DNA of 64,000 bases. It comes from a bacterium. GTDB lineage: Bacteria; Desulfobacterota; DSWW01. The stretch's first letter is position 1; every line of letters starts with the position of its first letter. The position numbers and the translations under genes were made by a program. The notes under the pieces were generated by a model. It worked only from the letters and a program-made list of their open reading frames with translations, was not told where the DNA came from and searched no databases. The stretch spans positions 21,493 through 85,492 of the forward strand of contig JBFLZG010000137.1 in the NCBI GenBank assembly GCA_040756235.1, written 5' to 3'. This document shows, one piece after another, positions 16,927 to 58,164 of this stretch.

Positions 16927-16981
16927 CCTGACCCCCCTTTTTCAAAGGGGGGCAAAGAAACCGGCGTCAGGCTCTTTCCCT

Positions 16982-17054
16982 GAGCTCTTCACCCCCCTTT
17001 CGCAAAGGGGGGCCGGGGGGATCTTGGATGGAGCAGCCGAGCTCGAAAATCCCC
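16982..17054. repeat. 73-bp intergenic repeat, copy 2
   Basis: Direct repeat of 16854-16926 with 5 mismatches, in the same orientation and 128 bp downstream. It ends 24 nt before the predicted start of the OM barrel gene. Confidence 0.9.
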
Positions 17055-29905: not shown

Positions 29906-30006
29906 TATCCGAGAGCCGGGTGGAGACGGACACGAGAGGGGGAGGTGCGCGCCCACCGTGTGAGATCCTGCGGACTCCGGGTGGGAAAACGAAAGGAGAT
30001 GCCCGG

Positions 30007-34840: not shown

Positions 34841-34922
34841 GGGCGAAAGGATTTTTCCCTACAGCTCGCAACAGGCTCCGCAGATGGGCCTTTTTCAACG
34901 GCCTGCCAAGGAGGAGGCTTGA

Positions 34923-36086: not shown

Positions 36087-36191
36087 TGAGACTCAGCGGA
36101 TGACATCTTCGGTTTCTGAGCCAGCCTGCTTGCAGGAGGAGATCTTTCGGGTTCCGGGGGCCGAAGGATGGCCGGATGCAAGGCGCGCGAC

Positions 36192-36268
36192 AATTCCGCA
36201 GGACAGCGGAATTGGACGCATCATCCGCGAGGATGATGCGCCCGTAGGGCGAGGGCCATGGATGGCCC
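36192..36268 (+). other. four consecutive perfect stem-loops in a 323-bp intergenic region (structured RNA / REP-like cluster)
   Basis: The four hairpins are: aattccgc-aggaca-gcggaatt (36192-36213); gcatcatcc-GCGA-ggatgatgc (36218-36239, GNRA loop); gccc-gta-gggc (36240-36250); gggcca-tgga-tggccc (36253-36268). Confidence 0.6.
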
Positions 36269-36409
36269 GAGTCAAATTTGAGGAGTGAGACGTAACCGGG
36301 AGTCACAGTGGACCCCGGCCTTCGCCGGGGCAGGCTCCCCCCGCCACATGCGCCATGCGGGCAGTACAGCGGATGTGCGTTTATCGACAGCTCATTACGG
36401 AGGGGAGCG

Positions 36410-38605: not shown

Positions 38606-38615
38606 GGGGGACCCC

Positions 38616-39443: not shown

Positions 39444-39476
39444 GCGCGGGAGGCTTCACCCTTGAGGAGAGAGGAT

Positions 39477-42425: not shown

Positions 42426-42436
42426 AGCAGGTTCTA

Positions 42437-42535
42437 GGTGTCAGGTTTCAGGTGTCGGACCCCCTCTTTCGCCCCTGAGAACTGGCCACTGAAAGCTGAC
42501 ACTGGGCAACTGAAAACGGGTAACTGACAACTCCT
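42437..42535 (+). repeat. short tandem repeats in the 137-bp gap before the CCG gene
   Basis: AGGTGTC/AGGTTTC/AGGTGTC at 42437-42457. Then about 2.5 copies of a ~21-bp unit rich in ACTGA (aactggccactgaaagctgac / actgggcaactgaaaacgggta / actgacaactcc) at 42481-42535. Confidence 0.7.
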
Positions 42536-42562
42536 CCAATCTTGACCGAGAGGGAGTCGACC

Positions 42563-43863: not shown

Positions 43864-44844
43864 TTGCCCGAGAAAGGTGTGGGTGATCGGAAAGGGCTCT
43901 TGCTCCTGCGCCTGGCCTTTCTGGCCTGTGCGCTGACCGCCGCGCTGGCTTCGCCTCCGGCCGCCCGCGCCGCCGAGGGCGCGGGGGCGATCTGGCGGTT
44001 CGATTTTCGTGATGTGTTTTATGACGCCACCTTCGTGCGGCCGGACTGGGGGGTGGTCGTGGGAGCCCGGGGCCGGATCCTCACCTCTCACGAGCGTTAC
44101 CCCAACCTGTGGGCCGTGCGGGAATCCGGCACGACCGAGCTGTTGACCTGCCTGAGCTTCGCGGATGAACGGCACGGGTGGGCGGCCGGGCACGGAGGCA
44201 TCATCCTCGGCACGACAGACGGCGGGCGCACCTGGGAGGTCCAGAGGGAGTCCGCGCCGGAGAACCAGCCCCTCTTCGACATCCAGTTCCCGACGTTCCA
44301 GGCCGGATACGCCTGCGGCGCCTTCGATACTTTCCTGAAAACCGCTGACGGAGGCAAGAGTTGGGAGGAGATCCCGACCGGCCTGGACATCATGCTCAAC
44401 GGGATGGCTTTTGCGGATGAACTACAGGGGTACATGGTGGGTGAGTTCGGGACCGTGGTTCGCACCCGGGACGGGGGAGCCTCGTGGGAGAAGCTCGATA
44501 CGGGAGACTACCAGGGGTCTCTCTTCGGCATCACGCTCCTGTCGGAGCAGGAAATCCTGGTTTGCGGGATCGCCGGCAAGATCCTGCGGAGCGAGGACGC
44601 GGGCGAGACGTGGAGCGGGATCCCGTCGGCCACAGACCAGTCCCTGTTCCGGGGGGCCGCCCAGGGGGAGGAGGTCGTCCTGGCGGGCAACTCCGGAACG
44701 ATCCTCTGCAGCCGGGATCGCGGGAAGCATTTCATCCCAAGGAAGGACGAGGATCTCACGAGCTTTGCAGGCGTGTGCCCACACCCGGGCGGAGGCTTCC
44801 TCTGCCTCGGAGACACGGGGAAGATCGTTCATCTGCAGCCCTGA
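43864..44844 (+). CDS. Ycf48/BNR-like beta-propeller protein, secreted
   Basis: TTG start 8 nt after AAGGAG. Signal peptide LLLLRLAFLACALTAALASPPAARA. Repeated T.DGG.SWE blocks (TTDGGRTWEV, TADGGKSWEE, TRDGGASWEK, SEDAGETWSG). Confidence 0.8.
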   Translation: MPEKGVGDRKGLLLLRLAFLACALTAALASPPAARAAEGAGAIWRFDFRDVFYDATFVRPDWGVVVGARGRILTSHERYPNLWAVRESGTTELLTCLSFADERHGWAAGHGGIILGTTDGGRTWEVQRESAPENQPLFDIQFPTFQAGYACGAFDTFLKTADGGKSWEEIPTGLDIMLNGMAFADELQGYMVGEFGTVVRTRDGGASWEKLDTGDYQGSLFGITLLSEQEILVCGIAGKILRSEDAGETWSGIPSATDQSLFRGAAQGEEVVLAGNSGTILCSRDRGKHFIPRKDEDLTSFAGVCPHPGGGFLCLGDTGKIVHLQP

Positions 44845-44900
44845 TCGGCTCATCCGGCCAGTCGGGATGAGGGGGCGGTTCGAACTCGCCAGAGGAGTCC

Positions 44901-45998
44901 ATGATGAGCCAGGATGCCTATTTCCAACTCGGTGAGCGGCTGAACGAGTATCAGGTGAAGATGATGCTGGTGGAGCCCTATCTGAAGATTCTCCGAGAGA
45001 TCTACACGGATGAAGAAGCGCAGCTCGGTGCTGAATTCCCCCTGGGAGCGCACACGGCTCCGGAGCTCGGCCAAAAGCTCGGCCGGCCGGAGAAGCCGCT
45101 CGCGGAGTTGCTGGAGAGGATGGCGGACAAGGGCACGATCTTTGTTACGAAGAGCGATGACGGAGTGAGCCGATACGCCCTGACGCCGTTCGTTCCCGGC
45201 GTGGTCGAATTCCAGCTCATGCGGGGCACGGATACGCCCAAAGACCGGAAGTTTGCCAAGATGCTGGAAGAGTTCATGGAGGGGGAGATGGCCGACCTGG
45301 CCCGGGCGGCATTCAAGGACCCGGAAGTGGCCAAACAGATGATCCCCGTTCCACCGGCTCGGACGGTCACGGTGCAGAAGGAGCTACCTCCCAATACCCA
45401 GGTCTATTCCTTCGAGAAGCTGAGCCAGCTCGTCGAGCAGGAAAACTTCTTTGGCGCGGCGAAGTGCTACTGCAGGCACCACGCATACCTGGTGGGAAAA
45501 CCGTGCAAGGTCCCGGGCGTCCCGGAGTATTCGTGCCTCATGTTCGGCAAGACAGCCGAGTATGTAACGGAACGAGGTTTCGGCAAGAGGATCACCAAGG
45601 AAGAAGCGTACCGGATCCTGGAGGCCACGGAGAAGGCGGGCCTCGTGCACAATACGAGCAACCTGCTCGACAGCACGGTTTTCGTGTGCAACTGCTGCGG
45701 TTGCTGCTGCGGCTTTTTGAAGAGCATGCAGCTCATGGGCACGAATGCGATGCTGTCCTTCTCGAACTTCAGGGTCCAGGCTGACACGGCGGAGTGCGTG
45801 GGGTGCGGGGATTGTGTGGAGCGCTGCCAGGTGGGTGCACTGAGTCTGGCCGAGGACGTAATTTCCGTGGCAGAGTCCAAGTGCCTGGGCTGTGGCAACT
45901 GCGTATCGGCTTGCCCTACGGAGTGTCTGACCATGGTCAGGCGTTCTGAGTGGATCCCTCCTGAGGCCGGAGATTCCCTGGGGGGGCTGGGGATGTAG
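44901..45998 (+). CDS. 4Fe-4S dicluster protein with N-terminal winged-helix-like domain and CNCCGCCC motif
   Basis: CVGCGDCVERC and CLGCGNCVSACP ferredoxin motifs. Upstream are CYCRHH...CKVPG...C and VCNCCGCCCGF. The N-terminal ~100 aa look wHTH-like (ELGQKLGRPEKPLAELLERMADKGTIF). Confidence 0.7.
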   Translation: MMSQDAYFQLGERLNEYQVKMMLVEPYLKILREIYTDEEAQLGAEFPLGAHTAPELGQKLGRPEKPLAELLERMADKGTIFVTKSDDGVSRYALTPFVPGVVEFQLMRGTDTPKDRKFAKMLEEFMEGEMADLARAAFKDPEVAKQMIPVPPARTVTVQKELPPNTQVYSFEKLSQLVEQENFFGAAKCYCRHHAYLVGKPCKVPGVPEYSCLMFGKTAEYVTERGFGKRITKEEAYRILEATEKAGLVHNTSNLLDSTVFVCNCCGCCCGFLKSMQLMGTNAMLSFSNFRVQADTAECVGCGDCVERCQVGALSLAEDVISVAESKCLGCGNCVSACPTECLTMVRRSEWIPPEAGDSLGGLGM

Positions 45999-46001
45999 TT
46001 A

Positions 46002-46153
46002 GAGCCTGTCCCAACAGGCTCGATTTCAGAGGCTGTTCAAAAATGCCCAGATGCAAGGCGCACGAAGTCCTGAGGAACGAGGCGTACATGGAAGTACGCC
46101 GCAGTGACGAAGGACGAGCGCAACGCCGCAGATGGGCGTTTTGGGACAGGCTC
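46002..46153 (+). mobile_element. MITE-like repeat, copy D (complete, with target-site duplication)
   Basis: Terminal inverted repeats GAGCCTGTCCCAA ... TTGGGACAGGCTC (15 bp if the flanking TA is included). TAGTTA flanks both sides (45996-46001 and 46154-46159); the left copy contains the TAG stop of the upstream gene. Internal hairpins are ggcgtac-atggaa-gtacgcc and aacgcc-gcagatg-ggcgtt. Confidence 0.85.
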
Positions 46154-46169
46154 TAGTTACGCCTTGCTC

Positions 46170-46188
46170 TTGTCCCGGAGCGGGACAA
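46170..46188 (+). terminator. stem-loop TTGTCCCG-gag-CGGGACAA (possible terminator; no T-tract)
   Basis: Perfect 8-bp stem, 17 nt after the MITE and 133 nt before the MMPL start. Confidence 0.25.
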
Positions 46189-46320
46189 TACCGTTGGGCT
46201 GTGGCGGGAAGGGCTTGTCAAACCGCGCTCAGAGGGGAGGAAAGACAGGGAGGGGTATTCTATCAACGAGAGCATGCCTGGCAAGCCGGTTGTGAGACAC
46301 CACACTAGACGGGGGGGCCT

Positions 46321-48684
46321 TTGAAACGAATTGCAGCGACCATCTTCAAGATTCGACTGCCTTTGCTCATCGTGCTGGCTCTGGCCACGCTTCTGCTCGG
46401 CTACGAAGCGAGCCGCCTCCAGGTGGTGACCGACTTCTCCAAGATGGTCCCGGACGACCATGCATACATCGTCGATTACGGGCCCTACAAGCAGATCTTC
46501 GGCGGCGGCAACCTGATCCGGGTGGAGGTCTCCAGCAAGCAGGGCACGATCCTGACGACCCGGTTCCTCGAGCTGCTCCGGAAGGTCAACGAAGATGTGA
46601 TGTTCGTCAAGGGCGTCGACCGGCTGACCGTCCGGTCCCTGGTCTCGCCGGAGACCCGCTTCGTCATGATCAACGAGGAGGGGTTCGACCTGGGGCCGGT
46701 CGTTCCGCCCAGGATCCCGGACACGGACGAAGGCCTGGCCAAGATCCATGACAACATCCTGCTGGCCCAGCTCAAGGGCCGGCTGGTCTCGATGGACCTG
46801 GAGTCGGCCCTGATCACGGGCGAGATCTACGAGAGCGGCGTCGATTATCTTTCGGTTTACAGGCAGCTCAACGAGATCCGCAGGACCTACACGAGCGACG
46901 AGGTCGGGATCCATATCAACGGCTTCGCCATGGTCGTCGGCTTCGTGAGAGACGCCCTGCCCAAGATCCTGGGGCTGTTCGGCGCTTCCATCTTCATCAC
47001 GATCCTGATCCTGTACCGCTGCTTCCGCTACCTGAGGCTGGCGGTGCTGCCCCTGGCCTCCGGCGCGCTGAGCGTGCTCTGGTCTCTGGGGATCGCCCGC
47101 GCGCTGGGGTTGAGCCTGGATCCGATGACGACGATCGTGCCGTTCCTCGTGCTCGCGATCGGGGTGAGCCACGGCATCCAGATGGTGAAGCGTTATCTGG
47201 AGGAGTGCGCGGTCCACAAAGAGGGGTACGACGCCGCGATGCACGCGCTGGCCGGCCTGATCGTGCCCGGCGTCGTGGCTCTCGGGACCGATGCCTTCGG
47301 CTTTCTGACCATCCTGCTCGTGCCGATCGGCGTGATCCGCGAGCTGGCGCTCACGGCGACCCTGGGCGTCCTCTGCATCATCGTGGCCAACATCCTGGTG
47401 CTGACCCTGGTCCTTTCCTTCTTTCCCAACCTGCTCACGTGGAGTGTGGAACCGGCCGAAAAGCAGACCCGGCCCCTGGTGGGCCGCCTGCTCACGCGCG
47501 TCGCCGCCCTCACGCACGGCCGCAACGCTTACCGGGTCGGGGTCGTGTGCCTGGCGCTGCTGGTGATGGGATTCCTCTACGCCCGCGACATGACGGTCGG
47601 CGACGTCAATCCCGGGGAGCCGCTCCTGTGGAAGGACTCGGTCTACAACCAGGACGCGGCCAAGATAATGGCGGACTTCATGCTGGGGATCGACTGGCTC
47701 TCGGTCGTGGTGACGGGCGCGGAGGAAGGGCTCTGCAAGGATTACGGCGTGCTGCAGAAGATGGAGGACTACGAGTGGGAGATCGGCTCGATACCCGGGG
47801 TCACGGTCGTGCTCTCCCCGCTGATCCTGGCGAAGGCGGTCAACGAGATGCTCCATGAAGGGGACATCCGCTGGAGGGGCCTTCCCAAGCAGCCCAAGGA
47901 CCTGGGTTACGCCATGCACTACGCGGGCTCGCACGAAGACAGCGAGTTCATGAGCATGGGGTGCCAGTCCATGAACATCCGGATCTTCCTCAGCGATCAC
48001 AAGGGAGACACGATCCGGCGGGTGGTCGCCAGGACCAAAGAGTTCATTGCCGGCCATCCCATGGACAGGGCCCGGTTCGTCCTCGCCGGCGGCAATGCCG
48101 GGGTGATGGCGGCGACCAACGAGGTCGTGGGCCGGGAGCAGGTCCCGATGCTCGCGCTCGTCTACGCTTCCGTGTTCCTGCTCTGCGTCGTCATGTTCCG
48201 GGAGGTGAAGGGCGCACTTTTCATCATGGCGCCGCTGTTTCTCGTCTCGGTGCTCTCGACCGCCTTCATGAAGGCCGTGGGCCTGGGGCTGAACGTCAAT
48301 ACCCTTCCGGTGGCCTCGCTCGGCGTGGGGGTGGGTGTGGACTACGGGATCTACATCTACTCGCGGCTGAGAGAGGAGAGAAAGGTCCACGCGCGCTTCG
48401 CGGATGCCGTGCAGGCCACCCTGCACACGACCGGCGCGGCCGTGCTCTACACCGCCATGACCCTGACCGCAGGCGTGTTCACCTGGATCTTCTCGGACCT
48501 GAAGTTTCAGGCCGACATGGGCATCCTGACCGGGTTTCTGTTCATCGGCAACATGATCGGGGCGGTGGTGCTGATGCCCACCCTGGTGTACATCTTCGAC
48601 GCCAGAACCAAGGAAGCGGGTCCCGCGATGTGCGCACCGAGCGCGGCTCCGGTCCGCAAAGCATCCGGAGACGGGCGGGAGTGA
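46321..48684 (+). CDS. MMPL/RND-superfamily (COG1033-type) lipid transporter
   Basis: 787 aa from a TTG start. It has two 6-TM bundles, each preceded by a large soluble loop. The layout and length are typical of HpnN-like MMPL exporters. Confidence 0.85.
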   Translation: MKRIAATIFKIRLPLLIVLALATLLLGYEASRLQVVTDFSKMVPDDHAYIVDYGPYKQIFGGGNLIRVEVSSKQGTILTTRFLELLRKVNEDVMFVKGVDRLTVRSLVSPETRFVMINEEGFDLGPVVPPRIPDTDEGLAKIHDNILLAQLKGRLVSMDLESALITGEIYESGVDYLSVYRQLNEIRRTYTSDEVGIHINGFAMVVGFVRDALPKILGLFGASIFITILILYRCFRYLRLAVLPLASGALSVLWSLGIARALGLSLDPMTTIVPFLVLAIGVSHGIQMVKRYLEECAVHKEGYDAAMHALAGLIVPGVVALGTDAFGFLTILLVPIGVIRELALTATLGVLCIIVANILVLTLVLSFFPNLLTWSVEPAEKQTRPLVGRLLTRVAALTHGRNAYRVGVVCLALLVMGFLYARDMTVGDVNPGEPLLWKDSVYNQDAAKIMADFMLGIDWLSVVVTGAEEGLCKDYGVLQKMEDYEWEIGSIPGVTVVLSPLILAKAVNEMLHEGDIRWRGLPKQPKDLGYAMHYAGSHEDSEFMSMGCQSMNIRIFLSDHKGDTIRRVVARTKEFIAGHPMDRARFVLAGGNAGVMAATNEVVGREQVPMLALVYASVFLLCVVMFREVKGALFIMAPLFLVSVLSTAFMKAVGLGLNVNTLPVASLGVGVGVDYGIYIYSRLREERKVHARFADAVQATLHTTGAAVLYTAMTLTAGVFTWIFSDLKFQADMGILTGFLFIGNMIGAVVLMPTLVYIFDARTKEAGPAMCAPSAAPVRKASGDGRE

Positions 48685-48692: not shown

Positions 48693-49718
48693 ATGACACG
48701 AGGAGTTGCAGAGGCAGGGCAGCCGGGACGCGAAGCGGTGCCTGCGGAGACCCGGATGCACGGCAGGACGCATGCGCCTGCGGAGTCCGCCTTCGATCGG
48801 AAGTTCATCTCCACGGTCCTGGCTCTTCTCGGCGCGGCGATCGTGTTTTTCACCTATCTCCATTTCTATCAGCCTCAGATCCTGCGCGTTCCCAGCAACA
48901 CCGACGTCTCGAGCTGGACGAACCCCGCGTTCGAGCAGACCTGCATTTACGACCGCATGACTGCGGAAGAGCGACAAAGGGTACTGGAGCAGGGGATCCC
49001 GCTCAACACCGTCTCCAACCTGATCGTGGCCGCGCTCTTCTCGGTCGTCTGCTCCTGGCTCTGTTTCGCTCACGCCCGGAAGCACTACGGCCGCTGGATG
49101 GCCTGGTGCTTCCTGTTCGGCTCCTTTGTCTTCACCGGCGCGCAGGAATCGATGTGGATCCTATTCGGCCGGTTCATGGGGCGCTCGGCCATGAGCGGTC
49201 TGGCGCAGGACCCGAGCGTGGGGACCTACTGGTTCACGCGCGGCGCCCTGTGGTTCATCGAGACGCCCGTGGAAGTCTGCCTGGGCTGGTTCTTTGTCGC
49301 CTACGGATGCGTGTGGATAGCTTCGAGGGTCTTCCCGGCTACGAGGCTGCTGGGCCGGGCCGCCGTGGGAGGCCTCATTGCCATGACCATCGACCTGTGG
49401 GAAGACCCGGTCGCGACCTCGCCGGAGCTCATGAGCTGGGTTTGGGCCAAAGGGGATTTCCTGCGGATCTTCGGGATTCCCCACACGAACTTCCTGGGAT
49501 GGTTTCTCCTCATTTTCCTGTTCGCGATCTTCTGGGAATGGCTGCCCTCCATGGAGCGCCGCTGGGGTCGGGGGAGGGCGACTCTGGCGTTTTTCGGCAT
49601 TGTCGTGGCCACGGAGGCGGCGATTCTGATCTTCATGCTGGTATGGTGCAGCGCCTTTCAGTCCCTGCTCGCTGCTTTGGGCTTCCAGCAGGGCATCCAG
49701 ATACCGCAGGGCTGGTGA
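48693..49718 (+). CDS. CruF/DUF422-like polytopic membrane protein, paralog 1
   Basis: Only the 3' part of the listed 47961..49718 ORF is credible. The start is ATG 48693 (after GGAGTGAGGA) or ATG 48756. The motif is IDLWEDPVATSPELMSWVWAKGDFLRIFGIPHTNFLGWFLLIFLF. Confidence 0.65.
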   Translation: MTRGVAEAGQPGREAVPAETRMHGRTHAPAESAFDRKFISTVLALLGAAIVFFTYLHFYQPQILRVPSNTDVSSWTNPAFEQTCIYDRMTAEERQRVLEQGIPLNTVSNLIVAALFSVVCSWLCFAHARKHYGRWMAWCFLFGSFVFTGAQESMWILFGRFMGRSAMSGLAQDPSVGTYWFTRGALWFIETPVEVCLGWFFVAYGCVWIASRVFPATRLLGRAAVGGLIAMTIDLWEDPVATSPELMSWVWAKGDFLRIFGIPHTNFLGWFLLIFLFAIFWEWLPSMERRWGRGRATLAFFGIVVATEAAILIFMLVWCSAFQSLLAALGFQQGIQIPQGW

Positions 49719-49747
49719 GACCTCTCGCAATCAGACAGGAGCGCTCC

Positions 49748-49954
49748 ATGTGGAAGAAGATCTGGAGGAACCGGGTGGAGTTCTATCCCTATTTTGCCAT
49801 TTATCTCTTCTGGTTCATGGGTGCCTTCCTGGGATCGCTCGGGATCCAGAACCGGCCGGGGATCGTCGCCCTGGGCGTGGTGACCGTCCCTTCGCTCACG
49901 CTGATCACGATCGCAGCGGTCCGCACGTACAGAGGGCTCCCCGGGTCTGCCTGA
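49748..49954 (+). CDS. small 2-TM membrane protein (68 aa)
   Basis: ATG 49748 after CAGGAG. MWKKIWRNRVEFYPYFAIYLFWFMGAFLGSLGI...GIVALGVVTVPSLTLITIAAV. It fills the gap between paralogs 1 and 2. Confidence 0.45.
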   Translation: MWKKIWRNRVEFYPYFAIYLFWFMGAFLGSLGIQNRPGIVALGVVTVPSLTLITIAAVRTYRGLPGSA

Positions 49955-50000
49955 GCCGCCTCACTTGACCCTTTCCCCGTGACCAGGGAGGCAGGACCGA

Positions 50001-50981
50001 ATGAAGCCGGCACCCTCCGTTCCCCTCGCGTTCCCGGCGCCTCCGCGGCCTTCTTATGACCGGAGCTTCGGCGCCGTGGCTTACGGATCGCTCGTGGCGG
50101 TCCTGCTCCTCTTCAGCTACCTGCATCATTTTCAGCCGCAAGTCCTGCGTGTGCCCGACAACGGCAGCGTGTCCTCCTGGCAGCGTCCGGCCTTCGAGGA
50201 GACCCTGATCCACGACCAGATGACCGCAGCTCAGAGGCAGGAGATCCGGTCACGGGGCGTGGTCCTGGGTAAGGATTTCGGCATGCAGCTCGCGGGCGAC
50301 CTCTTCACCATGGCCCTGGCCTGGGTCTGTTTCAGCCACGCCCTGCGGCACTTCGGCTTTTGGATGGCCTCGTGCTTTCTCATGGGGTCCTTCGTCTTCA
50401 CCGGCCTGGAGGAGACCCTCTGGATCCTCTCGGGACGGTTTTTCGGCGGGATGGTCCACAACCCTCTGGGAGAGACCTTTCACGGCACCTACTGGTTCAC
50501 CCGCGGGATCTTCTGGTTTCTGGAAACCCCGATCACCGCGTGCCTCGGCTGGTTCTTCATCGCTTACTCGTGCGTGCTCACCGCAGGAAAGGTCTTCCCC
50601 CGCATGGGCCTCTGGGGACGGGCCACCGTGGGCGGGCTGATCGCCATGTCCATCGATCTCTGGATCGATCCGGTGCAGACGGCGCCCGAGGTCACCTCGT
50701 GGGTCTGGGCCAAGGGCGATTTCCTGCTGTTCTTCGGTATTCCCCACTACAATTTCATCGGCTGGTTCCTCCTGATCTTCCTGTTCGCCATCTTCTGGGA
50801 GAAACTGCCCGGCATGGAGGCGCGGTACGGCCGAGCCGGAGCGACGAACCGTTTCTTTGCCATCGTGCTCGGCGTTCCCTGGCTCGTTCTCTTCTTCATC
50901 TGGCTGTGGCTCTTCGTACTCGGGAGCCTCTTCTCCTGGGCGGGAGTGGAACAGGCGGTGCACGTGCCCAGGGGCTGGTAA
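50001..50981 (+). CDS. CruF/DUF422-like polytopic membrane protein, paralog 2
   Basis: Collinear with paralog 1 (HFQPQVLRVPDNGSVSSWQRPAFEE vs FYQPQILRVPSNTDVSSWTNPAFEQ). The motif is IDLWIDPVQTAPEVTSWVWAKGDFLLFFGIPHYNFIGWFLLIFLF. Confidence 0.7.
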   Translation: MKPAPSVPLAFPAPPRPSYDRSFGAVAYGSLVAVLLLFSYLHHFQPQVLRVPDNGSVSSWQRPAFEETLIHDQMTAAQRQEIRSRGVVLGKDFGMQLAGDLFTMALAWVCFSHALRHFGFWMASCFLMGSFVFTGLEETLWILSGRFFGGMVHNPLGETFHGTYWFTRGIFWFLETPITACLGWFFIAYSCVLTAGKVFPRMGLWGRATVGGLIAMSIDLWIDPVQTAPEVTSWVWAKGDFLLFFGIPHYNFIGWFLLIFLFAIFWEKLPGMEARYGRAGATNRFFAIVLGVPWLVLFFIWLWLFVLGSLFSWAGVEQAVHVPRGW

Positions 50982-51004
50982 CGGACCTGAAACCGGGAGA
51001 AGCC

Positions 51005-51976
51005 ATGAACGACGACAAGCTGGGTCGAGGCGCTTTCTTTTACATGACGGCCGTCACCGTCTTCAACGTGGGCAACGTCCTGTACAACTACTTCTTCGTG
51101 GACCCGGTTCAGTTCCAGCAGTCCTACCAGCGCGCCGGCGACGCGCCCGGACCGCTGGAGTACTCGGCCCTGGTCAACATCTGCCTGAACCTGGTGTTCC
51201 TTTTCTGGAGCTCCTCGCTGGCCAAGGGTTGGGGGCGCACCCTGTCGGCCTTCTTCATCACGGTCCTCATCGCCTTCGTGGCCGAGGGGCTGGGCGTGCA
51301 TTACGGCTACGTGTTCGGCCACTATCACTACTCCGGAATCCTCGGGGTGCAGGTATGGGCCGTGCCGATCATCGTGTGCATGGCCTGGGAGCCCATCCTC
51401 TACGCCGCCTATTGCCTCACCGACTTCCTGATCCCGTCGGACTTGAAGAAATCCGGCTCCTTCGTACGGCGGATCTTCCCCTACCTGATCATGGCGGCCT
51501 TCGGCGGCATGGCCACCACGGCCTGGGACCTCATGATCGACCCGTTCGCCGTGGATCAGGGCTGGTGGATCTGGGAACAGGGCGGCCCGTACACTCCGTA
51601 CATTGCGACCGGCGTTCCGATCAGCAACTTCTTCGGGTGGTGGAAGGTGGCCTTCGTGTGTCACCTCGTCTATCGCCTCATCCTGGAGACGCACCCCAAG
51701 CCCCGCCGTTCTCTTTACCTGAGCGTCTACGGTCCCCTTATGCTCTATCTGCACCTGTTCCTGGGCGCCCTGAGCTCGATGCTGCTCTTCCTGAAACGGC
51801 CGGAAGTGGCGATGATCGGGGTCATGTGCATGGGAGGATTCCTGGTCCTGGCTTTCGGAAAGATCTTTCTGCTGAAGCAGCGCGTGGCGCCGCACCCGGC
51901 TGACCGCTGGCTCGCGGGAGAGGCCGGGGAGCCGGCCGCGGAGATCTCGCGCGAGCACGGGCGAGCAGTGGGCTGA
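51005..51976 (+). CDS. DUF422 (carotenoid biosynthesis protein / CruF hydratase family) membrane protein, paralog 3 (most canonical)
   Basis: Start trimmed to ATG 51005. First half: AFVAEGLGVHYGYVFGHYHYSGILGVQVWAVPIIVCMAWE. Second half: AWDLMIDPFAVDQGWWIWEQGGPYTPYIATGVPISNFFGWW. Both match the E..G...G.PFG.Y.Y / D...DP....W.W...GVP..NF.GW pattern I recall for PF04240. Confidence 0.65.
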   Translation: MNDDKLGRGAFFYMTAVTVFNVGNVLYNYFFVDPVQFQQSYQRAGDAPGPLEYSALVNICLNLVFLFWSSSLAKGWGRTLSAFFITVLIAFVAEGLGVHYGYVFGHYHYSGILGVQVWAVPIIVCMAWEPILYAAYCLTDFLIPSDLKKSGSFVRRIFPYLIMAAFGGMATTAWDLMIDPFAVDQGWWIWEQGGPYTPYIATGVPISNFFGWWKVAFVCHLVYRLILETHPKPRRSLYLSVYGPLMLYLHLFLGALSSMLLFLKRPEVAMIGVMCMGGFLVLAFGKIFLLKQRVAPHPADRWLAGEAGEPAAEISREHGRAVG

Positions 51977-52140
51977 GGTGCTCATTCGTAGCAGGGAGGC
52001 CACGGTGGCGGCCGGAGCGAGCACCATGAGCACTCGGTAGGGTGGACCAAGCCGAAGGCGTGTCCACCAACCACGGCTGCCGCATCGCGAGCGTGGCACT
52101 TGCGCGAAGTACAACCCGCCGGAGGTAAACAGGCAAGCAC

Positions 52141-53007
52141 ATGAGACTGGATTCCTGGGTAATGGAGCTGTTCTTCCTGCCCCTCGTGTACCTGGTCATG
52201 CGCGAGGCGCGGATCGTTTACGGCCGGGAGCGGGCCAGCATCTTTTTCTGGGGCTCGATCCTGTGGACCGGAACGATCGAGAACCTGGCGGTCATGTTGG
52301 GGGCCTACGACTACTTCGCCTACGCCAACTACTATTCCTTCGGTGGCAGGGTGATCCAGGGCTACGGCGGCTGGGTCGCCTGGATTCTGTTCGTCCCGGT
52401 CTCGATCTGCCTGGGCTGGTTCTTCCTGAGCTTTCCGGCCCTGATGGTCTCCATCCGCCTGCTGGGTGACCGGGCCAACATCTGGCTCAAGGCCGCCTTC
52501 GCGGGGCTCATCTTGGTGAGCTACGACGTGTTCTTCGACCCCCTGGCCGTGGTCAACCAGTGGTGGCGCTGGACCACGCCGGCCTTGTACATCCGCGGGG
52601 TCCCCTTGAGCAACTGGATCGGCTGGTTCTTCCTGCTGTTCTTTTTCGGCGCCCTCTACGAGCGCACCGTGCTGCAGCAGAAGGGGGTGAGAGGGCTTGT
52701 CTGGCTGGAGAGAATGCTGTTCCGGGCCGACACCACGGACCTTTCCGGCATGGACACCTGGAGAATCGGGAGGATCTTCTACTTCCGCCTGGCGGCCTAT
52801 CTGCCGGTGTTCTTCGCCGTCTCCATGATCGCCTCGCTGCTCACGACGACCCTCTGGAACAATCGGTGGGGTCCCTACCACAACGTCTTTCCGGCCACGG
52901 CCATTCACGAAAAGTACACGATTCCTGCAGCGGGACAGGCCGGCTCGCCCCGGCAGGAGCCGGCCATCCTCTCGGTCGGAGAGCAGCCATCGGGAGCAGA
53001 CAGATGA
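52141..53007 (+). CDS. CruF/DUF422-like polytopic membrane protein, paralog 4
   Basis: GTIENLAVMLGAYDYFAYANYY... and YDVFFDPLAVVNQWWRWTTPALYIRGVPLSNWIGWFFLLFFF. Confidence 0.65.
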   Translation: MRLDSWVMELFFLPLVYLVMREARIVYGRERASIFFWGSILWTGTIENLAVMLGAYDYFAYANYYSFGGRVIQGYGGWVAWILFVPVSICLGWFFLSFPALMVSIRLLGDRANIWLKAAFAGLILVSYDVFFDPLAVVNQWWRWTTPALYIRGVPLSNWIGWFFLLFFFGALYERTVLQQKGVRGLVWLERMLFRADTTDLSGMDTWRIGRIFYFRLAAYLPVFFAVSMIASLLTTTLWNNRWGPYHNVFPATAIHEKYTIPAAGQAGSPRQEPAILSVGEQPSGADR

Positions 53008-53252
53008 ATCATGCGGACCCTGTTGCGGATGCGGATTCGGCCGGCGCCGACAGAGCCCGGCGGAGAATGGCTTTCTGGCCTCTGCTCATGTACCTGATCG
53101 GGCTCGTCTGGGCGTACCTGAGCGTCCCTTTCGAGGGCCACACCTCCGCCCCGGAGAACGTCGTCTACAGCGTGCTGGTGGCAGGCCCCTTTTGGATCGC
53201 CATGCTCGTTTTCCTGGTCGTCGTCCGGCGGGATGGACGTGCGAAACCGTGA
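53004..53252 (+). CDS. small 2-TM membrane protein (82 aa)
   Basis: ATG 53004 overlaps the paralog 4 stop (ATGA). MAFWPLLMYLIGLVWAYLSV ... VVYSVLVAGPFWIAMLVFLVVV. Confidence 0.45.
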   Translation: MNHADPVADADSAGADRARRRMAFWPLLMYLIGLVWAYLSVPFEGHTSAPENVVYSVLVAGPFWIAMLVFLVVVRRDGRAKP

Positions 53253-53264: not shown

Positions 53265-54341
53265 ATGCAGATGGCCGAAAAGATCCATATTCTCGGGGCA
53301 GGCTTGTCGGGGATGGTTGCGGCGATCAACCTCGCTCGGCAGGGCCGGGAGGTTCTGGTGCTGGAGGGGGCGAAGGGCCTGGGCGGCATGGGCGGGCTGC
53401 ACCCCTCGGTGCACACGACCCCGATCGATCCGGCCTGGATGAGCCGGGAGATCGGTATCGACGTGACCCCGGTCTTCCACAGACCTAAAGGGTTCATGCT
53501 CGGCCTCGGCGACAAGACCTTCAAGCTCGACCCCGGCCCCATGCATTCCGTGGAGCGGGGCGCAAGGAAGACCTCGATCGACACCTTGCTCTACGAGGAG
53601 GCCCAAGCGGCCGGGGTCGCGTTCCAGTTCGGGGTCTACCTCAAGGACCTGCGCCAGCTTCCGAAGGGCTCGATCATCGCCACCGGACTCCACCACGAGA
53701 TGTACGACTACCTGGCCATACCCTCCGAAGTCCCGCGCGGCTTTGCCTCCACCCGCAAGATCGACTGGGAGAACTGGTGCGCGGGCAGTATGGCCTCTTA
53801 CACGGACGACTACTTTTACGCCAACTGCGTCAACCAGCTCATGTACGGGCTCCTGTTCGGCCGCAGGAAGGTGACGGTGGAGGGGCTGGAGGCCTGCAAG
53901 CTGGACATCCGGAAGAAGTTCGGCCTGGAGCTCGAGAACTGGGAGTACTTCACGGTGCGGGTGCCCACGGCCTCTGCCACCAACCCGAGGCTGTTCCAGG
54001 ACGGCTACATCCTGGCCGGCACCCTGGCCGGCGCCATGGACCCGATCGCCCTGTTCGGCATCCATGGCGCGCTGCTCTCGGGCAAGGTCGCGGCGACGGC
54101 GGTGGAGAGCCCGGATCAAGGCCTCGCGGAGTTCCGCAGGATCACGCGCTACTACCGGATCGCGTACTACGTGAAGCAGTTTCAGAAGAGCCTGCCGCCC
54201 AACCTGGCCGCGATGGAGTTCTCCCTCCGTCACCCGCGTCTGTTCTACCCGATGATGGCGATCTCCTCCGTCTCCGTACCGGGGTACCGTCAAGGCAACT
54301 GGAACTACGAGGTCATGAAGAAGTTGGAGAGGGTGCAGTAG
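53265..54341 (+). CDS. FAD-dependent oxidoreductase, geranylgeranyl-reductase-like
   Basis: KIHILGAGLSGMVAAINLARQGREVLVLE (Rossmann GxGxxG...E). LAGTLAGAMDPIALFGIHGALLSGKVAATA resembles the GDAAG.VDP.TG.GI..A..SG..AA block of the GGR/FixC family, with GT in place of GD. Confidence 0.55.
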   Translation: MQMAEKIHILGAGLSGMVAAINLARQGREVLVLEGAKGLGGMGGLHPSVHTTPIDPAWMSREIGIDVTPVFHRPKGFMLGLGDKTFKLDPGPMHSVERGARKTSIDTLLYEEAQAAGVAFQFGVYLKDLRQLPKGSIIATGLHHEMYDYLAIPSEVPRGFASTRKIDWENWCAGSMASYTDDYFYANCVNQLMYGLLFGRRKVTVEGLEACKLDIRKKFGLELENWEYFTVRVPTASATNPRLFQDGYILAGTLAGAMDPIALFGIHGALLSGKVAATAVESPDQGLAEFRRITRYYRIAYYVKQFQKSLPPNLAAMEFSLRHPRLFYPMMAISSVSVPGYRQGNWNYEVMKKLERVQ

Positions 54342-54423: not shown

Positions 54424-57084
54424 ATGGAGCACTTCAGGCTATTCATCGATGGCGAGTTCGTCGAGGCCGAAAGCGGCGCCAGGCGCCCGTCCCTGGACCC
54501 GGGCAATGGCCAGCCCGTCGCCACCGTGGCCTGGGCCGGCGTGAGAGACGCCGATCGGGCCGTAATGGCCGCGCGGCGCGCTTTCGACAAAGGCGACTGG
54601 AGCGGTCTCGCTCCCAAGGACAGATCCCGATTCCTCTTCGACCTCGCGGACCGGCTGGGGAAGATGGCGCTGCGCATCATCCAGTACGAGTGCCAGGACT
54701 CCGGCGCCACGGTACGCCGCATCGGCGGGGAAGTGCTCGTGACGTCGGTGGTGATCCGGGACCTGGCCTGGTACGCGGCCGAGAAATTCGCCTGGCGGGA
54801 AGAGGTTCGTCTGAGCAGCTTCATTCCGACCCCGTGCCGGGACTACGTCGTTCGAGAACCCGTCGGCGTCTGCGCCGGCATCGCCCCCTGGAACGCTCCC
54901 TTCTCCATGGCGATCCTGAAGATCGTTCCCGCCGTCATCATGGGCAATGCGGTGGTTCTGAAGACCGCCTCCGACACGCCGATCAGCGCGCTCCTGTTGG
55001 CCGAGGCGGTGGCCGCCAGCGGCATACCGAAGGGAGTGGTCAACGTGATCACGGGTCCCGGTCCGGAAGTCGGCGAGGCCCTCTGCCGCCACCCGGGGGT
55101 CGACAGGATCAGCTTCACCGGCAGCACCGAGGTGGGGCGCAGGATCCTCGAGATGGGCGCCGACTCCGTCAAGAGAGTGACCGTGGAGCTGGGCGGCAAG
55201 TCGGCCGGCATCGTGCTGCCGGACGCAGACCTGGACATCGCCGTCGATGGTTCCGTCTTCGGCATCTTCCTCCACTCGGGCCAGGTCTGTGCCGCAGCCA
55301 GCCGGCTGCTCGTGCACCGGGACGTCTATGAGCCGTTCGTCGAACGGTTGAAGGCGCGCATTCCGGCCCTGAAGCTCGGCTACCAGCTGAACCCCGAAGT
55401 GCACATGGGACCTCTCATCTCCGAACGGCAAAGGGAGCGGGTCGAGCGGTATGTCGAGATCGGCAGGCGGGAAGGGGCGCGGCTCGTCTGCGGCGGCAGG
55501 CGTCCCGAGGGGCAGGAGTTCAGCAGCGGATTCTATTACGAACCCACGGTGTTCGCGGATGTCGACAATCGAATGACCATCGCCCGGGAGGAAATCTTCG
55601 GCCCCGTGGCCTGCGTCATACCCTTCGCAAGCGACGAGGAGGCGCTTCGGTTCGCCAACGACTCGGATTACGGGCTGGTCGGCGCGGTCTGGAGCCGTGA
55701 CACCGCACGGGCCGAACGCATCGCCGCGCGCATTCGGGCCGGCACGGTCTGGGTCAACGACTGGAACGCCTTCAACCAGTTCACGCCCTTCGGCGGATAC
55801 AAGCGGAGCGGCCTGGGACGGGAATTCGGACACGAGGGGCTCGCCGCGTACACCGAGGTCAAGCATCTGCACGTCTCCGGGGTGGCGGACAAGGAGAGCC
55901 GCGTCACGTATCAGCTCATGTTCGACTACCCGGCGAGCAAGGCCTTCCAGTTTCAGAGCCCCACCAGGATCGACGTCGGACCGGGAGCGGTTCAGAACAT
56001 CGGCAGCGAGATGTTCCAACTGGGCTGCCGACGGGCGGTCATCTTGTCTGACAAAGGGGTCCGGGACGCCGGCCTCGTGGACGTCGTCCAAAAAGCCGTG
56101 GGCGACTCGTGCGCGGGAGTTTTCGATGGTTGCGAGGAGGACCCCAGCTTCGAATCGGTCGACCGGGCCGCGGAGTTCTGCCGAAAGGCAGGCGCCGACT
56201 GTCTGATCAGCCTCGGCGGCGGCAGCTGCATCGACACCGCCAAATCGGTGTCGGTGATTCTTACGGTGGGAGGCAGGGCTCTCGATCATATCTTTGCCAG
56301 CCGCCTCGAGGGGCCGGTCACGCCGCACATCGCGGTCCCCACCACCGCGGGGACCGGTAGCGAGGTGACCTGCGGAGCGATCCTCACCCACAGGAAGCTG
56401 GGCCGCAAGCTGGGCTTCATGGACAAGGCCGTTTTTCCCCGGGCCGCGATCCTGGACCCGGTGCTCACCCGAACGCTTCCGCGGGGCCTTACCGTCGGCA
56501 GCGGGATGGACGCCCTCTCCCACGCCATCGAGGCGATCCTCTCCAAGCTCAGGAACCCGGTGGCAGAAGCCCACGGCCTCCACGCGATTCGCCTGATCGT
56601 GGAGAACCTTCCGCGGGCCGCGGAGCACCCGGACGATCTCGACGCGCGACTCAACATGCAGATTGCCTCCTCCATGGCCGGCATCGCGGTGTGCTCTGCA
56701 GGGGCGGGCGTGGGACACGCCATGGCGCACACGCTCGGGGCCTTGTATCACGTGCATCACGGAACCGGCTGCGGTATCTGCCTGCCCGTGGCCATGCGCT
56801 ACAATAAGGAGGTTTGCGCCCCGGAGCTGGCCCGTGTCGCCCAGGCCCTGGGCGTCGATACGCGCGGCCTCACAGAGAACGAAGCTGCGGATTCCGCTGT
56901 AACCGAGGTCGAGGGATTCATGCAACGTATCGGCCACCCGATCCGGATGAGCGAGGTGGGGGTGGACGAGACGGACTACGTGGTCCTGGCCCTGGAATGC
57001 ATGCTCGAGTTCTGCTGCCTCCTCAACGCCCGGCCGGTCACCAACCCCCTGGAGGTGGCTCACATGTTCCAGGCGGTGGCCTGA
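54424..57084 (+). CDS. fusion of a classical NAD(P)-dependent aldehyde dehydrogenase and an iron-containing alcohol dehydrogenase
   Basis: The N-terminal ~480 aa carry both ALDH signatures (VELGGKSA; FLHSGQVCAAASR) plus EEIFGPV. The C-terminal ~390 aa are Fe-ADH (GGGSCIDTAKS; HAMAHTLGALYHVHHGTGCGICLP). Confidence 0.85.
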   Translation: MEHFRLFIDGEFVEAESGARRPSLDPGNGQPVATVAWAGVRDADRAVMAARRAFDKGDWSGLAPKDRSRFLFDLADRLGKMALRIIQYECQDSGATVRRIGGEVLVTSVVIRDLAWYAAEKFAWREEVRLSSFIPTPCRDYVVREPVGVCAGIAPWNAPFSMAILKIVPAVIMGNAVVLKTASDTPISALLLAEAVAASGIPKGVVNVITGPGPEVGEALCRHPGVDRISFTGSTEVGRRILEMGADSVKRVTVELGGKSAGIVLPDADLDIAVDGSVFGIFLHSGQVCAAASRLLVHRDVYEPFVERLKARIPALKLGYQLNPEVHMGPLISERQRERVERYVEIGRREGARLVCGGRRPEGQEFSSGFYYEPTVFADVDNRMTIAREEIFGPVACVIPFASDEEALRFANDSDYGLVGAVWSRDTARAERIAARIRAGTVWVNDWNAFNQFTPFGGYKRSGLGREFGHEGLAAYTEVKHLHVSGVADKESRVTYQLMFDYPASKAFQFQSPTRIDVGPGAVQNIGSEMFQLGCRRAVILSDKGVRDAGLVDVVQKAVGDSCAGVFDGCEEDPSFESVDRAAEFCRKAGADCLISLGGGSCIDTAKSVSVILTVGGRALDHIFASRLEGPVTPHIAVPTTAGTGSEVTCGAILTHRKLGRKLGFMDKAVFPRAAILDPVLTRTLPRGLTVGSGMDALSHAIEAILSKLRNPVAEAHGLHAIRLIVENLPRAAEHPDDLDARLNMQIASSMAGIAVCSAGAGVGHAMAHTLGALYHVHHGTGCGICLPVAMRYNKEVCAPELARVAQALGVDTRGLTENEAADSAVTEVEGFMQRIGHPIRMSEVGVDETDYVVLALECMLEFCCLLNARPVTNPLEVAHMFQAVA

Positions 57085-57174: not shown

Positions 57175-58164
57175 ATGGCCCACGAGAAGACCGCGCAGAT
57201 CATCAAAGACCCGCCCGGCGTGGATGAAACGGCCCATCCCTTCGAGCCGGTCGAGTGGTGGTACGCCAATGCGCTGCTCGATGCGCCCGGCTCCCCCATC
57301 GACGGCTGCGCTCTGGTCGGGACATTCACGATCCAGAGGCAAATGGCCGAGTATTGCCATGGCCTGATCGTTTCGCCCGAAAAAGGGTCCTTGGCAGATT
57401 TTTCAGGCTACGAGCTGCCACCCGGGACCATTTCGAGCAGCCAGGAGGAGCTGCGCGTGGGCTGCCGCAAGAACTACCTGCGCGGCCGCTACCCCCGATG
57501 GAGGCTGCACCTGGAGGGAGAGGACTCGGGGCGTCTCTGCAGGGCCGATCTCGAATACCAGGCCGGGGTGGACGCGGACCGCCGCACCTACGACATTCCC
57601 CCTTCCTACATGCATCACTACGTCGTCTATCGGAGCCGGGTCCGGGGAGCGATCACCCTGGGAAAGGAGAGCTGGGAGGTCCGGGGAACGGGCTACTACG
57701 AGCATTTCTTCGGTTTCCTGAATCCGCTCGAGTCGAGCGGGTGGATCTGGTACTGGTGTCCCGCGGCCGGACCGCACCGGCTGGCCTTCAACCTGGGGGT
57801 GAGCGCCTTCCGGGGCGGCCGCAAGCCCCTGAGCTTCGTGTTTCTTACGGAAGACGGCAAGACCTTCGCCGACTTCACGTCGGCGTCGCTCGAGGTGCTG
57901 GAAGAGAGGAATCTCGGGGGGATCGTCTACCCGCACAAGATCCGTGTGACCGAAAGAAGCGAACAAGGGAAGCTCGACGCGGTGGTCACCCGGATGGAGG
58001 CCCATTATCACAGGGTGAACCGCAGCCCCCTGGCCACGTCCATATTCGTCACCGGCTTCTCGCTTCTGGAGGGGAGGGCCGCCTGGATGGGCCGGGGCTA
58101 CGACCTCACGGGCCGCGCCTTCGGCAGCGTCATGCGGGTGGAGCTGCCCGAGACGAACCCGTAG
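57175..58164 (+). CDS. CrtC/AttH-like lipocalin-fold hydratase (carotenoid 1,2-hydratase superfamily)
   Basis: HPFEPVEWWYANALLDAPG near the N-terminus and GTGYYEHFFG mid-protein are the two blocks I associate with the hydroxyneurosporene synthase (CrtC)/AttH family. 329 aa, with no signal peptide. Confidence 0.5.
   Translation: MAHEKTAQIIKDPPGVDETAHPFEPVEWWYANALLDAPGSPIDGCALVGTFTIQRQMAEYCHGLIVSPEKGSLADFSGYELPPGTISSSQEELRVGCRKNYLRGRYPRWRLHLEGEDSGRLCRADLEYQAGVDADRRTYDIPPSYMHHYVVYRSRVRGAITLGKESWEVRGTGYYEHFFGFLNPLESSGWIWYWCPAAGPHRLAFNLGVSAFRGGRKPLSFVFLTEDGKTFADFTSASLEVLEERNLGGIVYPHKIRVTERSEQGKLDAVVTRMEAHYHRVNRSPLATSIFVTGFSLLEGRAAWMGRGYDLTGRAFGSVMRVELPETNP

Follow-up and report, generated by a model that had tools for sequence, protein, structure and literature searches.

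The only characterized members of the PF04240 family (Caroten_synth/DUF422) are the CruF proteins, which are membrane-associated and cofactor-free and hydrate the terminal (1,2) double bond of carotenoids (PMC6013536). CruF orthologs occur in carotenoid producers that have no crtC, and the regioselective hydration of unactivated C=C bonds is hard chemistry mastered by a handful of enzyme families (PMC6013536). The CrtC/AttH-like lipocalins (PF07143), which are soluble or peripheral and β-rich, also hydrate isoprenoids without a cofactor but belong to another, unrelated family. The anaerobic monoterpene island of Castellaniella defragrans encodes the linalool dehydratase-isomerase Ldi, the CrtI-family limonene dehydrogenase CtmAB, GeoA/GeoB, a CoA ligase, and a β-oxidation-like ring cleavage. 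In the degradation of steroid side chains, the thiolase-like aldolase Ltp2 is bound to the ChsH2 DUF35 domain, and such pairs cleave the C-C bond beside a tertiary alcohol made by hydration. Here, we describe a tandem array of four PF04240 paralogs (P1 to P4) and two microproteins (m1 and m2) in a 64-kb stretch of DNA from an uncultured member of the Desulfobacterota (contig JBFLZG010000137.1), the whole of which we call the window. The array may encode a set of membrane-embedded, hydratase-type enzymes, and its surroundings are not those of carotenoid biosynthesis. Its six genes are tightly packed on the + strand between 48.7 and 53.3 kb, in the order P1-m1-P2-P3-P4-m2:

P1, 48693 or 48756..49718, + strand: PF04240 paralog of the P1 subclade, the m1-independent type (36.1 bits, E 8e-9).
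m1, 49748..49954, + strand: predicted 68-aa microprotein with two transmembrane (TM) helices, putative partner of P2-type proteins.
P2, 50001..50981, + strand: PF04240-related paralog of the P2 subclade, the m1-preceded or m1-fused type (326 aa; matched to P0077 by this length and by a shared 93,351-bp contig).
P3, 51005..51976, + strand: the most canonical PF04240 paralog (106.5 bits), with AEGLGVHYGYVFGHYHY in its first half.
P4, 52141..53007, + strand: divergent PF04240 paralog (48.3 bits), short at the N-terminus and with a C-terminal half of its own.
m2, 53004..53252, + strand: predicted 82-aa, 2-TM microprotein, apparently coupled translationally to P4 through an ATGA overlap.

The start of P1 is ambiguous, with a Shine-Dalgarno-like site at both 48693 and 48756; the public gene call for an identical protein (P0001) starts at 48756 and gives 320 aa. 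An earlier note, made from the bare sequence, had pointed to a motif shared by the second halves of the four P proteins. When the window was translated in six frames, D[LV]..DP...W.W...G[IV]P..N[FW].GW occurred four times and no more, one time in each P gene, and it was absent from 200 codon-shuffled windows; the sequence strings quoted in that note were all present as written. In BLASTP comparisons, P1 and P2 were 54% identical (E 1e-132), P1 and P4 29% (E 1e-22), P2 and P4 30% (E 4e-24), P3 and P4 26% (E 4e-13), and P1 and P3 24% (E 1e-8). These matches indicate that all four P proteins are homologous to one another. The DNA repeats of the array are paralogous coding segments only.

The Pfam gathering threshold of PF04240 (25 bits) was passed by P3, P4, and P1 with the scores listed above, the P4 match spanning profile positions 20 to 158. 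P2 matched neither PF04240 nor any other Pfam family, even at E ≤ 10, and is placed in the superfamily because it is 54% identical to P1 and because the P1/P2 family profile matches that of the P3 family (hhalign probability 94.5%, E 8e-8). The P3 and P4 family profiles matched each other with a probability of 98%. The earlier note had taken the four genes for DUF422 relatives, with P3 as the most canonical copy and P4 as a divergent one, while allowing that P1, P2, and P4 might fall into an unrelated family; the profile searches bore out the former and tied all of them to PF04240. However, P3 missed the cutoffs of every NCBIfam CruF equivalog (TIGR03460, 62.1 versus 154.7; NF045693, 46.4 versus 400; NF041333, 45.0 versus 300), P4 reached 47.8 on TIGR03460 versus its cutoff of 154.7, and P1 and P2 had no match to the CruF equivalogs. 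The profile scores thus place the P proteins inside the PF04240 superfamily and outside the CruF orthologous groups.

An AlphaFold2 model of P1 (predicted local distance difference test [pLDDT] 87, predicted TM-score [pTM] 0.84) has seven long TM helices. The P1/P2 family profile found nothing below E 0.1 among PDB sequences, and Foldseek with the P1 model found nothing below E 0.5 among PDB structures; the modeled fold appears to be one that no solved structure shares. In alignments of the P1/P2 (A1, 21 homologs), P3 (A2), and P4 (A3) families, put in register by hhalign, an invariant or near-invariant core ran through all subfamilies. It comprises a Glu within a TM helix (P1 E131, P3 E94, P4 E47), a G.Y, a P..C..W that starts the next helix, a D...DP at a helix end, a W.W in the following loop, and a G(I/V)P..N..GW that starts the next helix. 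Since every paralog keeps the full core, none looks like a degenerate, noncatalytic copy.

The additional N-terminal TM helix and the loop that the earlier note had described for P1 and P2 are real features specific to the P1/P2 family, and both were near-invariant across the 21 homologs; the loop, HxxQPQ(I/V)LxVP...W.NP.FE, has about 45 residues. His36, Cys103, His106, and Cys175 (P1 numbering) are invariant in the P1/P2 family and absent from P3 and P4. Short connectors rich in Lys and Arg (FDRKF, HARKHYGRW, SRVFPATRLLGR, and MERRWGRGR) alternate with long motif-bearing loops, and in the P1 model the connectors and the conserved motif fall on opposite faces. By the positive-inside rule, applied to these connectors, the motif would sit close to the outer surface of the cytoplasmic membrane.

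Both micro-open reading frames (micro-ORFs) are real genes. The ATG of m1 is preceded by AGGAG at 7 nt, and that of m2 forms an ATGA with the stop codon of P4. Their GC contents at third codon positions were 0.83 (m1) and 0.77 (m2), compared with 0.85 to 0.90 in neighboring genes, and their ratios of nonsynonymous to synonymous substitution rates against orthologs were 0.09 to 0.23 for m1 and about 0.24 to 0.34 for m2, which places both under purifying selection. Neither had a Pfam match at or above cutoff, the m2 matches being sub-threshold TM noise. Split or heterodimeric membrane carotenoid enzymes, such as the CrtYc/CrtYd lycopene cyclase, may offer an analogy for such small proteins. Homologs of m1 adjoin P-type genes in about 20 of the loci fetched (given below by our own numbers, L001 onward), and share the pattern W.NR.EFYPY..FWF.G...S..VQNRPGIV.LG..T.PS. 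A HMMER scan of 1.84 billion representative proteins returned only 16 representative clusters of m1, so the family seems small and dedicated.

In five proteins (P0031, P0053, P0073, P0093, and P0115), m1 is naturally fused to the N-terminus of a P2-type protein. The five represent four lineages, P0115 being near-identical to the fused ORF L015:1281-2525, and a 402-aa representative was also recovered by the m1 search. All five belong to the P2 superclade, most unfused members of which have a separate m1 gene 5′ of them; members of the P1 superclade have no preceding m1. The AlphaFold2 model of the fusion P0031 scored a pLDDT of 85.5 and a pTM of 0.87, with 85 to 95 for the m1 hairpin itself. 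Given the natural fusions in the P2 clade and the gene adjacency, the most plausible role for m1 is that of a subunit, with the P2-type protein as its partner. The m2 gene follows P4 in all five P4-carrying loci (the window, L009, L012, L014, and L035). It is this strict co-occurrence alone that links m2 with P4, and a physical association is supported for m1 and the P2 type only. The earlier note's micro-ORFs, whose conservation in syntenic loci it had left in doubt, thus gained support from selection, synteny, and fusion.

Comparisons by hhalign of m2 with m1 and with the P1/P2, P3, and P4 families were not significant (E 0.09 to 0.33). A weak match of m1 to the C-terminal TM hairpin of P3-type proteins (probability 50%, E 1.7e-4), with an Arg-Pro loop in common, is no more than suggestive. 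An equivalence of m1 with the N-terminal helices of P3, seen by eye in an R..F.Y motif, was not supported by hhalign, which chose the C-terminal hairpin, and that weakly.

We scanned GTDB with one genome per species and obtained 26 loci, all from metagenome-assembled genomes (MAGs). Searches with P1/P2, P3, and P4 recovered the family of the respective query, with almost all matches metagenomic, and the few named homologs were labeled "carotenoid biosynthesis protein" or "hypothetical." The hosts were Syntrophaceae, Syntrophobacteria, Thermodesulfobacteriota, and Desulfobacteraceae, with distant single copies in contigs labeled Deferrimicrobium, an archaeon, and Helarchaeota. Arrays of two to seven paralogs were found in at least 12 loci, all of them from uncultured Thermodesulfobacteriota, Syntrophaceae, or Desulfobacteraceae MAGs, and are the rule in this bacterial core group. 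P3-type singletons occur in L029/L031, i.e., an Anaerolineae MAG and another metagenome contig. The arrays are composed as follows:

L001: six P1/P2-type genes, two m1, one P3.
L003, L006/L034, L036: four P1/P2-type genes, two m1, one P3.
L037: five P1/P2-type genes, two m1, one P3.
L033: three P1/P2-type genes, one m1, one P3.
L009, L012, L014: P2-m1-P2, then P4-m2 at 2 to 4 kb downstream; no P1 and no P3.
L035 (the closest relative, with a P1 79% identical): P1, P3, a truncated P4 duplicate, P4, m2; no P2 and no m1.

Array composition is modular. In a neighbor-joining tree, orthologous subclades kept their positions across genomes, and the duplications are therefore ancient and have been retained. 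The earlier note had offered two explanations of the fourfold expansion, a hetero-oligomeric membrane complex or a set of regio- or substrate-specific hydratases. The second fits better, with its common core and varying composition; an obligate four-subunit complex is argued against by the modular composition together with the same polar core in all paralogs.

Several details of the related loci deserve mention. The truncated duplicate of the P4 N-terminus in L035 is an 83-aa ORF (L035:11964-12215) just 5′ of P4, with a 4-nt overlap; it is 69% identical to P4 over 61 residues and is no homolog of m1 or m2. Between the P2 pair and P4-m2, the loci L009 (14039-15633), L012 (13189-14777), and L014 (12246-13834) encode a conserved, Cys-rich soluble protein of 440 aa with two PCGSGGRL motifs and a CIHCAATNRDQFEGKPW motif, followed by a 91-aa TM protein; the window holds no counterpart of either. 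The distant P-like genes (L022, L023, and L026 to L028) have unrelated neighbors, which look like housekeeping genes in the archaeal loci. The contig of L026 (DATKTP010000004.1, labeled Candidatus Deferrimicrobium) has 35% GC and a P-like gene that clusters with archaeal copies, and L026 and the Helarchaeota contig L028 both have a PfkB kinase 5′ of the P-like gene; L026 may thus be archaeal and misbinned. The complete chromosome of a Deltaproteobacteria MAG (CP070770.1) has only one P-type gene, a short one, together with an m1-like gene (L021:9986-10911), with an 841-aa glycyl-radical enzyme (PFL-like plus Gly_radical; L021:11059-13584) directly 3′ and a CrtI-like Fe-S flavoprotein close by. 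This pair may be linked to radical hydrocarbon activation.

In the window, all genes from 34.4 to 58.2 kb are closely spaced on the + strand, and no intergenic terminator stands out above chance. The array is flanked there by the following genes:

TetR2, 33421..34089, - strand: TetR regulator (Pfam TetR_N, TetR_C_29).
34367..37789, + strand: DUF35 protein (ChsH2-type OB-fold), SCP-x/Ltp-type thiolase, and PaaK-like CoA ligase (Pfam, NCBIfam).
37802..43801, + strand: two DUF2148 ferredoxin-domain proteins, a 987-aa FAD_binding_4 fusion, and a CCG Fe-S protein.
43864..48684, + strand: Ycf48/BNR-like β-propeller, 4Fe-4S protein, and HAE3/MMPL transporter of the resistance-nodulation-division (RND) type.
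53265..54341, + strand: FAD oxidoreductase, weakly geranylgeranyl (GG)-reductase-like (NAD_binding_8; GG-red-SF 34 bits, far below cutoff).
54424..57084, + strand: 886-aa fusion of an aldehyde dehydrogenase (ALDH) to an iron alcohol dehydrogenase (ADH) (Pfam Aldedh 541 bits plus Fe-ADH).
57175..58164, + strand: remote CrtC-like protein of 329 aa (26% identity, E 8e-7, to L003:4395-5519).

Upstream, the 23- to 34-kb region encodes two acyl-CoA dehydrogenases, two enoyl-CoA hydratases, two short-chain dehydrogenases/reductases (SDRs), two TetR regulators, and two CrtI/CrtD/HpnE-like flavoproteins. Many of these neighbors recur beside other arrays. TetR2 orthologs (64 to 78% identical) adjoin those of L009, L012, L014, and L035, where the L035 copy is divergent from P1. 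The DUF35/thiolase/ligase set is syntenic with the arrays of L009 and L014, with paralogous sets in L034, L036, and L037; the best NCBIfam matches of the thiolase and DUF35 proteins were generic thiolase/lipid-transfer protein models and BbsB, all below cutoff. The FAD-oxidase/CCG pair lies directly 5′ of the array in L009, L012, and L014 (64 to 83% conserved) and in L007, and split versions of it occur near a P-like gene on the archaeal contig L027. The BNR-MMPL pair is syntenic with the arrays of L006/L034, L010, L013, L036, and L037; in the window it scored 99.6 bits for PSII_BNR, 79 bits for MMPL, and 152 versus a cutoff of 351.9 for the HAE3 subfamily model. Envelope lipid-transport clusters of this kind combine an MMPL/HAE3 permease and a BNR β-propeller with DUF1302/DUF1329 outer-membrane partners; a DUF1302 gene follows the pair only in L036 and L037 and is not beside the pair of the window. 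Orthologs of the FAD oxidoreductase (38 to 64% identical) adjoin the arrays of L006, L009, L012, and L014. In loci of the Syntrophaceae type, the neighbors are a CrtC-family protein, three thiolases with DUF35, an AMP ligase, a thioesterase, an FAD reductase, BNR, MMPL, and DUF1302.

The protein encoded at 57175-58164 had no Pfam match of its own, but shares the motifs EWWY, GTGY..H..G, and WYW with L003:4395-5519, which passes the gathering score of PF07143 CrtC (26.4 versus 22.5 bits), as does L034:378-1370 (27.2 bits). CrtC/AttH-like genes also stand by the arrays at L036:318-1331 and L037:964-1977. The two CrtI/CrtD/HpnE-like proteins, of the flavin amine-oxidase family, are encoded at 27645-28997 (- strand) and 29920-31521 (+ strand), flanking a TetR gene and adjoining the acyl-CoA dehydrogenase, enoyl-CoA hydratase, and SDR genes. 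They scored 41 to 48 bits versus a crtI_fam cutoff of 238, and similar genes lie near the arrays of L033 and L021.

Among the remaining neighbors, the tandem DUF2148 ORFs (37802-38605 and 38499-39443, both + strand) have maximal frames that overlap by about 100 nt, and the true start of the second is therefore probably further downstream; neither was detected in the related loci searched. The 987-aa protein (39462-42425, + strand) carries two FAD_binding_4 (GlcD-like) modules in one chain, and the best NCBIfam match of the CCG-domain Fe-S protein (42542-43801, + strand) was TfrB-like, below cutoff. The ALDH-ADH fusion has the domain order of AdhE, but its ALDH is of another kind, resembling betaine-aldehyde/phenylacetaldehyde dehydrogenases, and looks nonacylating by its best matches. 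Positions 1 to 17000 of the window hold an unrelated exopolysaccharide locus, with a fragment of a UDP-glucose dehydrogenase, GT4 glycosyltransferases, a Wzy-like protein, two sulfotransferases, a flippase, a sugar transferase, FemAB-like proteins, and a Wza-like exporter. No RNA families and no tRNAs were found in the window.

The scanned ORFs of the 64 kb include no phytoene/squalene synthase (SQS_PSY), polyprenyl synthase, or cyclase, the gaps hold no further large ORF, and no such gene was noted in the Pfam-annotated syntenic loci. The context is not one of carotenoid biosynthesis, a point that the earlier note had not foreseen; the locus instead resembles a TetR-controlled catabolic island.

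How does the array compare with the described systems? Like CruF of Synechococcus PCC 7002 and Deinococcus and the haloarchaeal bisanhydrobacterioruberin hydratase, the P proteins belong to PF04240, are polytopic, have about 290 to 330 aa, carry the motifs E..G, G.Y.Y, D...DP, W.W, and G.P..N..GW, and show no detected cofactor-binding domain. Unlike them, they fall 3- to 9-fold below the curated equivalog cutoffs, occur as four to seven tandem paralogs rather than as one gene, and have 2-TM microprotein partners as well as the additional helix and loop of P1 and P2. Moreover, their hosts, judged from MAG taxonomy labels, are strictly anaerobic, nonphototrophic lineages, and their neighbors are of the β-oxidation type instead of crt genes. 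CrtC shows no sequence kinship to P1-P4, yet both families co-occur here, with CrtC/AttH-like genes accompanying the arrays of L003, L034, L036, and L037 and only a remote relative (57175-58164) in the window. The C. defragrans island offers the same oxygen-independent logic, in which water-derived hydroxyls and CrtI-family flavoproteins are followed by alcohol and aldehyde dehydrogenases, CoA activation, and β-oxidation. However, Ldi has no sequence kinship to the P proteins, and the substrate here is presumably larger and membrane-resident. Finally, SCP-x-type thiolase and DUF35 OB-fold pairs adjoin the arrays, a likeness to Ltp2/ChsH2 at the domain level only.

Tentatively, and with somewhat less than even confidence, we read P1 to P4 as a membrane-embedded, cofactor-free, hydratase-type set that acts on a lipophilic unsaturated, probably isoprenoid, substrate in anaerobic catabolism. 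This reading builds on the observed homology, conservation, synteny, m1-P fusions, and absence of carotenoid synthesis genes; the hydratase activity itself we infer from the family. In such a scheme, the four diverged integral-membrane CruF/PF04240 enzymes would form a battery, and two of them would each have a 2-TM microprotein of their own as a partner (m1 for the P2 type, m2 for P4). Each paralog would protonate an isolated C=C bond in a lipophilic compound, probably an isoprenoid, that is dissolved in the cytoplasmic membrane, and water addition, a bond shift, or dehydration would follow. The conserved Glu/Asp/Asn/Trp cluster is predicted to lie near the outer membrane face. The paralogs would differ in the bond or substrate accepted. 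Their genes would be part of a codirectional, TetR-associated island of about 24 to 35 kb, in which the MMPL/BNR system may handle the hydrophobic compound and the CrtI-like and GG-reductase-like flavoproteins and the CrtC-like protein may further modify its double bonds. The ALDH-ADH fusion, CoA ligase, thiolase/DUF35 pairs, and β-oxidation enzymes would then break it down without oxygen. The co-located CrtC-like family and thiolase/DUF35 pairs fit this reading but prove nothing.

Several points weigh against a hydratase set in catabolism. For the P subfamilies, any enzyme activity is a prediction from family membership, and with scores far under all curated CruF equivalog cutoffs they cannot be taken as orthologs of a proven hydratase. 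When trisubstituted isoprenoid bonds are hydrated, the products are tertiary alcohols, which are not directly oxidizable, so the link to ALDH/ADH and β-oxidation is not straightforward. The CrtI-like, GG-reductase-like, and HpnN-like MMPL neighbors could equally serve lipid remodeling, the distant P-m1 pairs and archaeal relatives stand in unrelated contexts, and all loci come from MAGs, so that the substrate lacks a physiological anchor. A more specific version of the catabolic reading is rather doubtful: the arrays and CrtC-like proteins would be the missing oxygen-independent hydratases that initiate the anaerobic breakdown of polyunsaturated isoprenoid hydrocarbons, each paralog hydrating a different bond in the membrane and the thiolase/DUF35 pairs cutting the chain at the tertiary alcohols. 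In anoxic sediments rich in hydrocarbons, candidate substrates would be squalene, carotenoids, and highly branched isoprenoids.

The most serious rival, although we consider it unlikely, is that the paralogs modify isoprenoid lipids of the cell itself, such as a carotenoid-like pigment, a hopanoid or squalene-derived lipid, or a polyprenyl quinone side chain. That lipid would be tailored by the flavoproteins that resemble GG reductase and CrtI, and MMPL/BNR would export it to the outer membrane. This rival is serious because lipid tailoring would suit the CrtI-like, GG-reductase-like, and HpnN-like proteins equally well, and it gains from the biosynthetic role of all characterized PF04240 members, the weak HpnN/BstA-like matches of the MMPL protein, the weak GG-reductase and MenJ matches of the FAD reductase, the presence of CrtI/CrtD/HpnE-like flavoproteins, and the Anaerolineae P3-type singleton, which adjoins a CrtI-like Fe-S flavoprotein and no catabolic genes. 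The lack of a synthase or cyclase for any such lipid in the 64 kb or, as far as noted, in the Pfam-annotated syntenic loci speaks against it. The weak biosynthetic-equivalog matches were all far below cutoffs, and the dominant neighbors (TetR, acyl-CoA dehydrogenases, enoyl-CoA hydratases, thiolase/DUF35, CoA ligases, thioesterase, and ALDH-ADH) are typical of degradation.

The conserved order of positional orthologous subclades across genomes, the tight spacing with translational coupling, and the apparent association of m1 with the P2 type would also suit one obligate hetero-oligomeric complex of P1-P4, m1, and m2, in which only some subunits are catalytic. We regard such a complex as improbable, as composition varies from L035 to L009/L012/L014 and L001, P3 stands alone in other phyla, and every paralog keeps the full putative catalytic core, leaving no degenerate-looking scaffold. 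It is very improbable that the P proteins are not hydratases at all but membrane anchors or quinone-interacting partners of the GlcD-like/CCG dehydrogenase, or lipid transporters or flippases. In L009, L012, L014, and L007 the FAD-oxidase/CCG genes lie directly 5′ of the array, and archaeal L027 has them near its P-like gene; this would suit such a role, since CCG proteins commonly dock on membrane subunits, and so would the invariant His36, Cys103, His106, and Cys175 of the P1/P2 family. However, the association with the FAD-oxidase/CCG genes is lacking in the Syntrophaceae-type loci and L035, and in the window the CCG gene and P1 have three other genes between them. Only P1/P2 have the invariant His residues, which lie at opposite membrane faces in the model, a poor fit to bis-His heme ligation, and the core shared by the whole family consists of acidic and aromatic residues, as carbocation chemistry would require.

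The earlier note had allowed that tandem PF04240 arrays might be common and already annotated. They do recur, in one uncultured clade, but their annotations are machine labels only, and our search of open-access papers turned up no account of such arrays, the P1/P2 subfamily, or the m1 microprotein; a paper on a limonene methanogenic enrichment does not mention such genes. New here are the PF04240 subfamilies, a microprotein subunit supported by fusions, and a nonpigment genomic context in uncultured anaerobes, while the function assigned to them is an inferred one. The automatic label "carotenoid biosynthesis protein" is misleading for organisms that have no carotenoid pathway at these loci, and is corrected here. 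PF04240, the mechanism of which is to our knowledge uncharacterized, has diversified in uncultured anaerobic Thermodesulfobacteriota, where it forms at least three more subfamilies, with conserved multiparalog arrays and apparently dedicated microprotein subunits, in a context that points to degradation and not pigment synthesis. The chemistry of cultures has shown that isoprenoid hydrocarbons can be degraded anaerobically in a process that starts with hydration, and we know of no enzymes assigned to it. If the catabolic reading is true, the arrays would supply candidate genes for this process and a panel of natural regio-variants for biocatalysis. If its more specific version, with isoprenoid hydrocarbons as substrates, is true as well, the arrays would define a new pathway of catabolism and a new type of two-component enzyme, in which a PF04240 core is joined by a 2-TM microprotein.

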